In this document: positions 3,840-13,693 of the stretch, one piece after another | How positions within the stretch are numbered: the stretch's first letter is position 1 | Layout of the letters: every line of letters begins with the position of its first letter | Source: a plasmid | DNA length: 64,000 bases | Direction: 5' to 3' (one strand) | NCBI RefSeq assembly: GCF_056712565.1 | Contig: NZ_JBWXXM010000004.1 | Translations under genes and position numbers: made by a program | The notes under the pieces: model-generated | Told to the model about the DNA's origin: nothing | Databases searched by the model: none | Seen by the model: the letters and a program-made list of their open reading frames with translations, nothing else

Positions 3840-4229
3840 ATGGGCTTCCCTTCTCCTGCGGCGGATTATGTTGAAAGCCGAATTTCTCTTGATCAGCAGA
3901 TAATTAGACATCCATCAGCAACCTACTTCATGCGGGCAGCTGATAGCCATCACCGTGAGGGAATATTGCAGGGTGCTTTGCTGGTGGTTGATTCTTCGCT
4001 TACTCCAGTTGATGGTTCGCTGCTTGTGTGCGCTATGGAGGGTGAATATCGCATAAAGAGATACAGGAAGTATCCGCGCCAGCACCTGGAGGATTTAAGC
4101 ACCGGGAAGAAAGAGGCGTTACCAGTAGATGACGATGGATGCACGGGCAGTAATGCTGTTTTTGGTGTGATCACTCATGTCATCAATGATGCCCGAAGTG
4201 GGGAGTTTGATGATTGTCCGGTTATTTAA
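3840..4229 (+). CDS. humD: HumD, UmuD-like S24 peptidase-family SOS mutagenesis protein
   Basis: 129-aa product, LexA/UmuD-like C-terminal domain; LexA box upstream; P1 synteny. Confidence 0.8.
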   Translation: MGFPSPAADYVESRISLDQQIIRHPSATYFMRAADSHHREGILQGALLVVDSSLTPVDGSLLVCAMEGEYRIKRYRKYPRQHLEDLSTGKKEALPVDDDGCTGSNAVFGVITHVINDARSGEFDDCPVI

Positions 4230-4301
4230 GCTGCAAAGGGCTGGTGCTTTATGCCTGTGAGGTTTATAATTGTGTACACATAACGAGTACACGAGGTGTT
4301 T

Positions 4302-4523
4302 ATGCAATCCATTAACTTCCGTACCGCGCGCGGCAACCTTTCTGAAGTGCTCAACAATGTTGAAGCCGGGGAAGAGGTTGAAATCACCCGCAGAGGCCGT
4401 GAGCCAGCAGTAATTGTCAGCAAGGCTACTTTCGAAGCCTACAAAAAAGCGGCGCTGGATGCTGAATTTGCATCCCTGTTTGACACCCTGGACTCCACCA
4501 ACAAGGAACTGGTTAACCGATAA
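4302..4523 (+). CDS. phd: Phd antitoxin (prevents host death)
   Basis: Translation [73 protein letters not shown] matches P1 Phd as I recall it; stop overlaps doc ATG (taATGa). Confidence 0.9.
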
Positions 4524-4903
4524 TGAGGCATATATCACCGGAAGAACTTATTGCGCTTCATGATGCGAATATAAGCCGCTACGGCGGCCTGCCTGGCATG
4601 TCAGATCCGGGCAGGGCAGAGGCCATTATCGGGAGAGTTCAGGCCAGAGTTGCCTACGAAGAGATCACCGACCTTTTCGAAGTCTCCGCCACCTACCTGG
4701 TGGCTACAGCGAGAGGGCATATATTCAATGATGCCAATAAGCGTACCGCGCTAAACAGCGCGCTGCTATTTCTACGCCGTAACGGGGTGCAGGTATTTGA
4801 TTCACCTGAACTGGCAGACCTTACTGTAGGCGCTGCGACTGGCGAGATATCTGTATCTTCTGTCGCCGACACGTTACGTAGATTGTATGGTTCTGCGGAG
4901 TAG
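4523..4903 (+). CDS. doc: Doc toxin (death on curing; Fic-fold kinase)
   Basis: 126-aa product [22 protein letters not shown]...; translationally coupled to phd. Confidence 0.9.
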
Positions 4904-5087
4904 ATTAATGGCACGCAAATACAACAAATTGTCCCTTGAAGCGTTAAAGATGCTTCTTGATGGCGTGAGTCGCCGCAAGGTAAAGCAATACCTGGTTGGT
5001 AAGCAAATTGGAGTCAGGACCGCTATTGCTGTGTTATGCCGTCAGGAAATGGTTGTGCTTAAACAGAGAATGCCGGGCAGCAGATAA
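4887..5087 (+). CDS. hypothetical small protein (66 aa), post-doc position
   Basis: ORF track only. Confidence 0.25.
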
Positions 5088-5114
5088 AGCCCAATCAGTG
5101 ATTAAAGGTGTGAT

Positions 5115-6158
5115 GTGAAAGCCGTAATTACTCCCTTTGTACAGAAAGAGCTTGGCCTCGCCACGTTCAAAGTGGATCAGGAGGTCAGAAAACTGGTGGA
5201 GGCTGGCCGTAAATTTATCATGGAGCCGGTGCCGCGTGAGTTAATCGAGCACATGGAAGACGGCCTCGTTGTTACCGAGCAAACCATGGCAACAAATGAG
5301 GCGTTGCAGCCGTTTTTTAACAGCGATGAACTGTTTCGCCGTATTGGTGGAATTGACGCGCTGGTGGCGTGGTTGCGTAGGAAAGAGGGTCAATGCCAGG
5401 CCGCAGATCGTAGTTGGTGTGACAACCATATTGTCCACGCTGAACGAGACAATAGCGCGGTGTTGTTGTGCTGGCATCACGATAACCATTACCGGATGCG
5501 TGGTTTTAATGAGCTGAAAGAAACGCTGCACAATAATCGCGTTAACTGGATACTGGATGTCGCCCGTCAGGAAATGGGCCTTTCAAATAGCCATGATTTA
5601 AGTATTCAGGAGCTGTGCTGGTGGGCTTTCATGCGCAACATGATGCACCTGATGCCGGAAGAAGTCTGCCGCATATCAATAAATAAGATGAAGGCTACTC
5701 CGCAGGATAGCGGACCTCTGAAAGAGGCGGATATTCGCCCGTATGACGATCGCGCTACAGCATATGTTCAGATGATGGAAGAACGCGCCGCGCCGATGCG
5801 TGCAAAAGTATGCCCTGTGGATGTTGACTCCGACCCAGGTATGGCGCATTTCAAAATACCAAAACTTCAATCGCTAAAATTGCCCGAGTACATGGACTTT
5901 GTGGCTTCCCGTCCATGCTGTGGCTGTGGAGCTGCGGGAGCTGGCGCTCACATTACGCCTTATATCGTTCGTCATAGTCGATTATGCGCGCATGACATTT
6001 ATGCTATTCCTCTGTGCCAGTCATGCCAGCGTGATATTGAGCGTGACCGCGATAATTGGGAGAAGACGCACGGTAGGCTGGCGATGCATCAACGATTGTT
6101 CTTTGATTACGCGCTTGGAGTCGGCGCTATCACAAGTCACTCGTCGAGCGTTAGATAA
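5115..6158 (+). CDS. hypothetical protein with C-terminal Cys cluster (347 aa), post-doc position
   Basis: GTG start; C-terminal CCGCG...CAHD...CQSCQ metal-binding-like cluster. Confidence 0.45.
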
Positions 6159-6159
6159 A

Positions 6160-6176
6160 ATTGCTCTAATGTATTG
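6160..6176 (+). promoter_or_regulatory. C1 operator-like 17-mer upstream of lpa-position gene
   Basis: attgctctaatgtattg, 13/17 to the P1 C1 operator consensus ATTGCTCTAATAAATTT. Confidence 0.4.
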
Positions 6177-6246
6177 CTATTTCTTTAATCGAGGGTATTA
6201 TATTCCACGTTGATTAGTTGACATGGGCTAATCAGTAGGTGACAGG

Positions 6247-6699
6247 ATGTTACTTAACTGGCAGGGACGCCACTTCATGGAAATAAATCACTCACGAATA
6301 ACATCGTACGAGATTGCGGATTACATGATCCGCACTAAATCTCTTCTATCAGCGAAAGAACTCGCAGCAATTCTTGAAAAGGAATACCCGCATCTGGATG
6401 TCGATAAGCGCGATGTTTATCTGCGCTTAAAGGCTATCGCTGTGTCTAAGTATTCGTCTGTTTTGATTGATGACAGTACACGCCCACGTAGATTTCAGAT
6501 CCACTCTCTGAATCCTGAATTCTTTCGCCGCAGCCGCGCTCCGCGCCGGTTTGATGAAAAACTCCAGAACGAACTCTATATGACGCAGGACGAAAAGGAA
6601 CGCCGGGAGCACCAGCCTTGGGTGATGGCGCGTCAACTTTTCAATAAGGTGGTCCGTCAGCACCGTCATTACGGTAATGCCACATCCGCACGTATCTGA
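6247..6699 (+). CDS. late promoter activator (Lpa)-position protein, 150 aa
   Basis: Immediately upstream of pacA with a C1-operator-like site in front, as for P1 lpa; identity by synteny only. Confidence 0.45.
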   Translation: MLLNWQGRHFMEINHSRITSYEIADYMIRTKSLLSAKELAAILEKEYPHLDVDKRDVYLRLKAIAVSKYSSVLIDDSTRPRRFQIHSLNPEFFRRSRAPRRFDEKLQNELYMTQDEKERREHQPWVMARQLFNKVVRQHRHYGNATSARI

Positions 6700-6785
6700 T
6701 TGATTGCTTGCCCGTTCCGGGCCTTTTGACATGTGACTTTCGTTACCCTCGCGTCAAAAAGAGTTTTATACGAAAGGAAGCATAA

Positions 6786-7978
6786 GTGACCTGGGACGAT
6801 CACAAGAAGAATTTTGCTCGCCTGGCGCGAGATGGTGGTTACACCATCGCACAATATGCCGCCGAGTTTAATCTCAACCCAAACACCGCACGTCGTTATC
6901 TCCGTGCATTCAAAGAAGACACCGGAACAGCGGACAGCCGTAAGCCAAATAAGCCTGTCAGAAAACCACTAAAAAGCATGATCATTGATCACGCTAATGA
7001 TCAACGTGCAGGTGATCACATTGTGGCTGAAATGGCTGAAAAACAAAGAGTTAATGCTGTTGTCAGTGCCGCAGTCGAGAACGCGAAGCGCCAGAATAAG
7101 CGCATAAATGATCGTTCTGATGATCATGACGTGATCACCCGCGCCCACCGGACCTTACGTGATCGCCTGGAACGCGACACCCTGGATGATGATGGTGAAC
7201 GCTTTGAATTCGAAGCTGGCGATTACCTGATAGATAACGTTGAAGCGCGGAAGGCCGCGCGCGCTATGTTGCGTCGGTCCGGGGCTGATGTTCTGGAAAC
7301 CACTCTTCTGGAAAAGTCTCTCTCTCATCTCCTTATGCTGGAGAACGCCAGGGATACGTGTATTCGCTTGGTTCAGGAAATGCGCGATCAGCAAAAAGAC
7401 GATGATGAAGGAACTCCGCCTGAATACCGTATCGCGAGCATGCTAAACAGCTGTTCCGCGCAGATAAGCAGCCTGATCAACACCATTTACAGCATCCGGA
7501 ATAACTATCGAAAAGAAAGCCGGGAGGCGGAAAAGCACGCTTTGTCTATGGGGCAAGCTGGCATTGTAAGCTGGCATACGAACGAAAGCGTGAAAACAAC
7601 TGGTCAGTGCTGGAGGCAGCTGAATTCATCGAGGCGCATGGAGGGAAAGTACCGCCCCTGATGCTGGAGCAAATCAAAGCCGATCTGCGTGCTCCTAAGA
7701 CCAATACCGATGATGAGGAAAGGCAAACAGCCGTCGGTGGCCCTTCTCTTGAAGATCTGGACAAAGTTGCGCGAGAACGGGCCGCCAACCGCCGCGCCGA
7801 TGCCGCATTGTGGATTGAGCAGCGTAGGGAAGAAATCGCCGATATCGTTGATACAGGCGGTTATGGAGATGTTGATACTGAAGGTGTATCAAACGACCCA
7901 TGGCTGGAACAAGACCTGGACGAAGACGAGGAGGAAGACGAAGAAGTTACCCGCAAGCTATACGGGGATGATGATTAA
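6786..7978 (+). CDS. pacA: terminase small subunit PacA, reading frame broken in this sequence (ORFs 6786-7661 and 7607-7978)
   Basis: Contains the pac hexamer cluster; directly precedes pacB; total span 1193 nt (one short of a multiple of 3); the second frame reads continuously upstream to about 7580. Confidence 0.65.
6979..7137. other. pac packaging site: 4 + 3 TGATCA/G hexamers flanking the cleavage region
   Basis: TGATCA at 6979, 6986, 6998, 7013 and TGATCG/TGATCA at 7109, 7121, 7132; each contains a Dam GATC; the 4+3 layout is that of P1 pac. Confidence 0.75.
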
Positions 7979-13132: not shown

Positions 13133-13693
13133 ATGAAAACAATCGAACAAAAACTTGAACAGCGCCGCGAGTGGCAGAAGGCAGCCAGAGAACGAGCGAT
13201 CGCTCGGCAACGGGAAAAGTTGGCTGACCCCGCCTGGCGAGAATCGCAATATCAGAAAATGCGGGATTCTATCGACCGCCGTATCGCTAAACAGAAAGAG
13301 CGCCCACCAGCCAGCAAAACGCGGAAAAGTGCGGTAAAGATAAAATCTCGTGGCTTGAAGGGGCGAACATCGACAGCGGAGGAACGGAGCATCGCCAATG
13401 CTCTTGGCGCTCTCCCCTGCATTGCCTGCTACATGCATGGAGTAATATCTGAAGAGGTATCTCTGCACCATATCTCCGGTCGTACCGCGCCGGGTTGTCA
13501 CAAAAAGCAATTGCCCCTTTGTAGATGGCACCACCAGCATGCAGCACCGGCTGAAGTAAGAGAAAAATACCCCTGGCTGGTCCCTGTTCATGCCGATGGT
13601 GTGGTTGGAGGCAAGAAAGAATTCACCTTGCTGAACAAGTCAGAGATGGAGTTGCTGGCTGACGCCTATGAGATGGCAAACATCATGCACTAA
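13133..13693 (+). CDS. ref: Ref, HNH-family recombination enhancement endonuclease
   Basis: 186-aa product; HNH-like CYMHGVISEEVSLHHISG...CRWHH; P1 position after cre/c8. Confidence 0.85.
   Translation: MKTIEQKLEQRREWQKAARERAIARQREKLADPAWRESQYQKMRDSIDRRIAKQKERPPASKTRKSAVKIKSRGLKGRTSTAEERSIANALGALPCIACYMHGVISEEVSLHHISGRTAPGCHKKQLPLCRWHHQHAAPAEVREKYPWLVPVHADGVVGGKKEFTLLNKSEMELLADAYEMANIMH

Follow-up and report, generated by a model that had tools for sequence, protein, structure and literature searches.

The nearest relative of the protein described here for which experiments have been reported is Gp16 of Staphylococcus phage PhiNM1, a member of Pfam family PF16784 (HNHc_6) reported in 2026 to be a RecA-dependent nickase (PMC12817073). 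Alanine substitution of its zinc-finger residues (C148A, C181A and H184A) abolished the in vivo effects of the protein, substitution in its nuclease centre (H185A and H189A) relieved them only partly, and growth inhibition by the H157A mutant was unchanged (PMC12817073). Ref of phage P1 (PF16786, 186 residues, PDB code 3PLW) is an active RecA-dependent HNH nuclease; its gene also lies in the DNA analysed here (13133-13693, + strand), where it is considered solely as a comparison partner. YbcO of prophage DLP12 (DUF1364, PDB code 3G27) is a single-domain protein of about 96 residues. Jablonska et al. (2017) placed DUF1364, together with DUF968, in group 7 of the His-Me finger superfamily, and a lambda Orf/NinB-like domain has been claimed for Gram-positive DUF968 proteins (Curtis et al. 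2014). No experimental report of nuclease activity was found in the literature for the YdfU-type DUF968 proteins, among which we count PdcB, the subject of this report.

The window, that is the whole stretch of plasmid DNA analysed (positions 1-64000), is overall nearest to Salmonella phage SJ46, a P1-like phage-plasmid, with P1 itself less near. The open reading frame at 5115-6158 on its + strand (stop codon included), which has a GTG start and encodes 347 amino acids, as many as the earlier note had given, is pdcB ('post-doc' gene B) of a P1-type phage-plasmid. A Shine-Dalgarno-like AAGGTG (5104-5109, + strand), read directly from the sequence, lies 5 nt 5' of the start codon; homologues keep the N-terminus MKAVITPF, the start codon of some of them being ATG. 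The product is 100% identical to that of SJ46 and matches P1 PdcB (YP_006573) at 343 of 347 positions, the substitutions V4I, A225S, D313Y and A338V leaving the Cys/His motifs untouched, while identity over the surrounding region (4200-6900) amounts to 99.6% with SJ46 and 98.6% with P1. This near-identity and the shared order doc-pdcA-pdcB-Olpa-lpa-pacA place the gene in the P1 orthologue group: the neighbours phd-doc-pdcA-pdcB-lpa-pacAB are common to both, and what the window carries is a sister phage's copy of the P1 gene. The P1 record gives "unknown protein function" for pdcB and 25 pct identity to P76162, the accession of YdfU. Gene, Pfam family and superfamily assignment alike were already published.

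The Pfam search that the earlier note had proposed assigns PdcB to DUF968 (PF06147) with a score of 170.4 bits against a curated gathering threshold of 27.8 (E 4.6e-50), the match covering residues 161-337 and model positions 1-171. At E <= 1 no other Pfam family, PF16786 and PF16784 included, matched the protein. PHROG 96 ("HNH endonuclease") matches PdcB over its full length and PHROG 11007 covers residues 2-134 alone. NCBIfam profiles gave no relevant match to PdcB, PADLOC models matched neither PdcB nor its upstream neighbour PdcA at E <= 1, and sequence searches of the PDB with the protein, the family profile (A2) and an N-terminal profile (A3) returned nothing meaningful.

Homologues fall into a P1 lineage and a lambdoid group. 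A word-indexed search yielded close P1-like relatives only, and the lambdoid family emerged when 1.84 billion representatives were searched exhaustively with HMMER, a search that found 133 relatives, around 36 of them full-length at 24-39% identity. By tblastn, relatives are present in 175 phage records, 20 of them P1-like and 155 from lambdoid or other temperate phages at less than 60% identity, the latter often named "YdfU family". P1-like elements of E. coli, Salmonella, Klebsiella and Cronobacter carry homologues that are 65-82% identical and have intact frames; those at 65-70% identity also preserve the Cys pattern, and remoter ones (37-39%) occur on other contigs. The family alignment (A2) used below holds 39 sequences, namely 31 non-P1 sequences of the lambdoid YdfU type and eight of the P1 lineage (the window protein, P0004, P0007, P0010, P0014, P0018, P0020 and P0022).

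PdcB has the YdfU-type architecture of an N-terminal zinc module followed by DUF968, and approximately 30 homologues align over residues 1-340. The YdfU-type proteins, such as YdfU of the Qin prophage, gp49 of mEp460 and a Stx2-phage 'ydfU' product, are collinear with PdcB over the full length at 24-31% identity, and share with it the N-terminal module, P-K and W-E...H-G motifs and a position at the end of the early operon beside a late regulator. They differ from the P1 lineage in keeping a D-P-H-H ... C-H-x-E-L-H centre and a G-x-G-G-M-G-T-K loop, both absent from the latter. In several database entries (P0049, P0052, P0079, P0080, P0134, P0037, P0058 and P0081) the N-terminal 160-220 residues are fused to tail-tip protein J or to tail fibre/collar, portal or capsid fragments. 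These look like chimeric assemblies or deletion products of decaying prophages, not real architectures, and were discarded as a functional clue. The idea that DUF968 proteins stand in for the RusA resolvase was also ruled out, both genes being found together in mEp460 and Serratia phage BZS1.

AlphaFold2, supplied with the 39-sequence alignment, gave a model with pLDDT 86.2 and pTM 0.57 (pLDDT 90.5 for the N-terminal 160 residues modelled alone). Short strands and helices make up an N-terminal subdomain (residues 1-90; 5115-5384, + strand) with no recognisable fold relative. It is followed by the N-terminal zinc module (residues 94-129; 5394-5501, +), a predicted beta-beta-alpha unit with strands at 106-111 and 114-119 and a helix at 120-129, whose putative ligands are C94, C102, C119 and H122. 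Residues 94-125 are rich in His, Trp and Cys, and are the His/Trp-rich region that had been described as preceding the Cys cluster. Conservation here extends to the P1 lineage: C94 is found in 38/39 sequences, C119 in 39/39, W120 in 38/39 and D123 in 35/39. Cys and His interchange at two of the four putative ligand positions (at 102, 26 Cys and 11 His; at 122, 32 His and seven Cys), a pattern that we infer to be the signature of a metal ligand. The first strand has no conserved histidine at its end, so the module looks non-catalytic in every member of the family. The N-terminal model, taken alone, yields weak structural matches (IscB 5.0, ScoMcrA 4.8, Ref 3.8, Cap5 3.7 and YbcO 3.6), and at best the module may be a remote HNH-like zinc knuckle. 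With hhalign the two zinc modules of PdcB fall into register (the first Cys, then L-C-x-x-H/C) at an E-value of 0.032, suggestive of a possible internal duplication.

The middle helical region (residues 161-255; 5595-5879, +), delimited by secondary structure and conservation, is the first half of the DUF968 model. It contains the invariant P249-K250 and D238, and can be placed with low confidence in hhalign register with the N-terminal domain of Gp16. The C-terminal His-Me (HNH) finger domain (residues 256-340; 5880-6134, +) is predicted to contain a second beta-beta-alpha unit, with strands at 281-284 and 297-300 and a helix at 302-310, and the predicted structure thereby displays the beta-beta-alpha-metal fold of the His-Me fingers. 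The best structural neighbours of the PdcB model are real or putative nucleases, and the nearest solved structure to the C-terminal domain is Ref. Given that the N-terminal model matches only weakly, the strong Ref and YbcO signal belongs to the C-terminal domain. Similarity to metal-binding nuclease folds, the lack of which the earlier note had named as grounds for abandoning its suggestion of a nuclease or zinc-binding regulator, was present. A structure search of BFVD returned nothing significant. The protein as a whole is slightly acidic, with a pI of 6.46 and no segment of net positive charge, and neither property lends support to generic DNA binding.

Within the C-terminal domain the residues of the putative zinc site and those of the nuclease centre have had different fates. 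The first zinc knuckle, C268-C-G-C271, is encoded at 5916-5927 (+) and the second, C301-Q-S-C304, followed by Q305 and E309, at 6015-6041 (+). A Cys-cluster peptide with which the earlier note had the protein end is indeed present, as residues 268-320, with 27 further residues after it, so that 'ends' was loose. All four cysteines are kept in each of the eight P1-lineage sequences, C268 being found in 39/39 and C271 in 30/39 across the family, so PdcB has the CxxC...CxxC pattern of the putative structural zinc site that is present in many, not all, His-Me finger subfamilies. The lambdoid motif reads Q-P-C-x-x-C-G-x-x-A-D-D-P-H-H-I-I-G-H-G-x-G-G-M-G-T-K-A-H-D-L-F-x-I-P-L-C-R-x-C/H-H-x-E-L-H, and 30/31 non-P1 sequences retain H283-H284, H305 and H309; in the remaining one columns 283/284 hold Q-H. 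The P1-lineage motif (n=8) includes x-x-A-x-I-T/S-P-Y/F-I/L-V-...-L-C-A-H-D-x-Y-A-V/I-P-L-C-x-x-C-Q-x-x-I-A/E. Here the H-H pair is absent from all eight sequences, which have Y, F or H and then I, L, M or R, so that in PdcB the end of strand 1, where the catalytic (general-base) His is expected, is Y283-I284 (5961-5966, +, located by the family alignment). The acidic D/E281 that precedes the catalytic His is replaced by T or S. The metal-ligating His, Asn or Asp of the helix is likewise missing: H305 and H309, each found in 30/39 sequences and in 0/8 of the P1 lineage, give way to Q305 and E309 (A309 in most of the lineage). The glycine-rich G-x-G-G-M-G-T-K loop has been deleted. Loss of the catalytic residues in the P1 lineage is well supported by the alignment. 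The suggestion of a nuclease or zinc-binding regulator is partly upheld. As to other candidate residues, H293-D294 is invariant in the P1 lineage and the window protein also has H279 and H287 nearby; H279, present in the window protein and in P1, is replaced elsewhere in the lineage by R, N, Q or Y.

The converse loss is also seen. Eight lambdoid relatives (P0045, P0059, P0062, P0072, P0085, P0104 and P0117 are examples) have lost two or three of the zinc cysteines, leaving sequences such as CTHE or CTSA, yet retain every catalytic histidine. Since the losses in these proteins and in the P1 lineage are reciprocal, the zinc site and the nuclease centre are separable in the DUF968 family. The two groups, one with cysteines and no histidines and the other the reverse, amount to a natural experiment in which the contribution of the HNH zinc finger to structure can be told apart from its contribution to catalysis. 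That the P1 lineage in particular has lost the nuclease centre is the sole new point here, a modest refinement that, like the doubt it casts on the label "HNH endonuclease", is absent from the papers retrieved. In P0069 the histidine set has been degraded as well, independently of the P1 lineage.

These residues can be placed on the experimentally characterised relatives, to which the profile similarity is distant. Gp16 aligns with the family profile over 153 columns (hhalign, E 3.6e-7), and its HNH core lies just above the DUF968 threshold at 29.1 bits. In this alignment the zinc-finger positions C148, C181 and H184 of Gp16 fall on C271, C301 and C304, kept in PdcB. Its nuclease-centre histidines H157, H185 and H189 fall on I284, Q305 and E309, where PdcB has lost them. 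The N-terminal domain of Gp16 is NinB-like, and the protein lacks the N-terminal zinc module of PdcB. Ref aligns over the HNH core (hhalign, E 2.4e-5) in a register that agrees with that of Gp16, its H112/H113 falling on columns 283/284; unlike PdcB it retains this pair and H133/H134 (SLHHISG...LPLCRWHHQH). Where Ref has an unstructured, basic N-terminus, PdcB has 255 N-terminal residues. YbcO gave no match to the family profile at the sequence level. The comparison points to Gp16 and Ref as the right templates for experiments on the YdfU family.

Substitution rates show that pdcB is a real gene under purifying selection, with dN/dS of about 0.1-0.16. By the Nei-Gojobori method, the pair from two P1-like elements (L010 and L011) is unsaturated (dS 0.65), and its dN/dS is 0.14 across the whole gene, with 0.18 in the N-terminal part, 0.03 in the middle and 0.16 in the C-terminal domain; for the window gene against either of these the value is around 0.10, with dS saturated. 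Across P1-like elements the protein is 329-347 residues long with its frame intact, and the cysteines, D294, P299 and G320 are invariant. The homologous frames and the overall value of 0.14 exclude a chance open reading frame. In P1, both a CRISPRi screen and a cited deletion survey scored pdcB as non-essential (PMC10695390), and phages with insertions in the gene, chosen as a neutral site, still give stable lysogens (PMC10067587, PMC10999674).

The gene lies, as the earlier note described, between doc and lpa. Upstream are a humD-like gene (3840-4229), phd (4296-4523), doc (4523-4903) and pdcA (4887-5087, +), whose 66-residue product belongs to PHROG 3345, of unknown function. The first 17 nt of pdcA (4887-4903) overlap the end of doc, which suggests translational coupling. 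Two bases past the pdcB stop codon begins the C1 operator Olpa (ATTGCTCTAATGTATTG; 6160-6176, +), located by transferring the P1 annotation through a coordinate offset and read in the sequence. Beyond it lies lpa (6247-6699; PF25716, E 2.3e-57), which is preceded by Plpa and followed by pacA, pacB, c1 and cre. The P1 annotation has no promoter between Pphd and Plpa, and a + strand terminator scan from doc to lpa found none that was convincing, so transcription of pdcB is likely to be by read-through from the upstream operon, in P1 phd-doc-pdcA. As no + strand terminator was detected ahead of lpa, such read-through from phd-doc would meet C1 bound at Olpa.

The 'post-doc' position is incidental and the stable linkage is that of pdcB with lpa, since in L002, L010, L011 and Cronobacter phage JK004 the P1-lineage gene immediately precedes lpa-pacA-pacB, and this adjacency persists in elements that lack phd/doc and pdcA. 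In diverged P1-like elements the genes that precede pdcB show no relationship to PdcA, by which a conserved PdcA-PdcB pair was ruled out. The remote homologue P0022 lies away from lpa, in an accessory region of a 94.8-kb P1-like contig (L003 3886-5671, L004 5211-6996). It directly follows a NinI-like metallophosphatase gene (PF00149) and is surrounded by genes of the kind usual in the early regions of lambdoid phages (Ead/Ea22, DUF551 and DUF4752), in effect a nin-like cassette inside a P1-type element.

Canonical YdfU-type genes close the early (nin-like) region, and the late regulator follows either immediately or after one intervening gene. Among these regulators are Q of PF06323 in both L005 and L007, the Q of mEp460 and of Serratia phage BZS1, and the PF03589 antiterminator of L009. 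Loci at which a DUF968 gene adjoins a late regulator or lies one gene from it comprise L005 6001-7694, L007 2981-4665, L009 81-2101, L012 3501-5256, L015 2501-4529, L010 and L011 4001-5582, and the window at 5115-6699. These regulators and Lpa of the P1-like elements are mutually unrelated, and the linkage outlasts replacement of everything upstream; it may reflect only a conserved modular order.

On balance we favour the reading that PdcB, the P1-lineage version of the YdfU-type DUF968 proteins, is a non-cleaving, zinc-stabilised binding module, a zinc finger left over from a recombination-type nuclease. Its C-terminal finger, which in the lambdoid relatives carries a complete nuclease centre, has had that centre replaced (H-H by Y-I, H305 by Q and H309 by E or A) and the glycine-rich loop deleted, purifying selection maintaining the putative zinc site (C268, C271, C301 and C304) and the rest of the domain. 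PdcB would then no longer cut DNA at the canonical site and might bind DNA, or a DNA-protein complex such as the RecA filament, and so play an accessory part in recombination or DNA metabolism that would be dispensable for laboratory lytic growth and lysogeny. That it is instead an active HNH endonuclease which, like Ref, would cleave such targets as recombination intermediates or DNA bound by RecA is in line with the RefSeq and PHROG 96 labels, with DUF968 and His-Me finger membership, with the real or putative nucleases among its structural neighbours and with the intact zinc cysteines. The invariant H293-D294, with H279 (in the window protein and P1) and H287 nearby, could form an unconventional active site, and motif-based 'dead' calls are not infallible, to judge from Gp16, whose H157A mutant kept its in vivo phenotype. 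We nevertheless consider cleavage unlikely: the H-H pair at the general-base position and both helix histidines are missing from all eight P1-lineage sequences, which have also lost the glycine-rich loop and do not agree at position 279, and the labels are transferred from the family. With the catalytic histidines gone, the label "HNH endonuclease" is probably wrong about the activity of PdcB. A pseudo-nuclease, the dead descendant of a RecA-dependent Ref/Gp16-like finger, retained by selection in the P1 lineage, that would bind DNA or RecA-DNA uncut via its two zinc modules and so modulate or antagonise recombination nucleases, is a more specific proposal that we hold to be doubtful. If true, the nucleases affected could include Ref of P1 itself or the YdfU-type enzymes of lambdoid prophages in the same cell.

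The loss of catalytic residues and the dispensability of the gene in the laboratory might also be expected of a decaying, functionless relic of a nuclease gene. This is hard to credit in view of dN/dS values of about 0.1-0.16 that include the degenerate domain, and of an intact frame of 329-347 residues with invariant cysteines, D294, P299 and G320 across four host genera at 37-70% identity. A zinc-finger regulator tied to late gene control would accord with the position of pdcB homologues next to lpa in L002, L010, L011 and JK004 even without phd/doc, and of canonical relatives next to Q or one gene from it; one DUF968 family member is, moreover, annotated 'phage transcriptional regulator'. 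Yet lpa is essential and pdcB non-essential (PMC10695390), the Pfam scan reveals no helix-turn-helix or other regulator domain in PdcB, and P0022 has its place in an accessory region instead. Conserved modular order, with nin-type DNA-metabolism genes ending the early operon, accounts for the adjacency just as well, and a regulatory role seems to us improbable.

The favoured reading, a non-cleaving binding module, bears on no long-standing open question. Its practical value lies in annotation correction, the RefSeq and PHROG label being at odds with the lost nuclease-centre residues of the P1 lineage. An accurate inventory of parts is of some use for a workhorse phage such as P1, whose phage-plasmid relatives spread resistance genes. 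In Ref and PdcB, one phage genome appears to encode armed and disarmed versions of similar folds.
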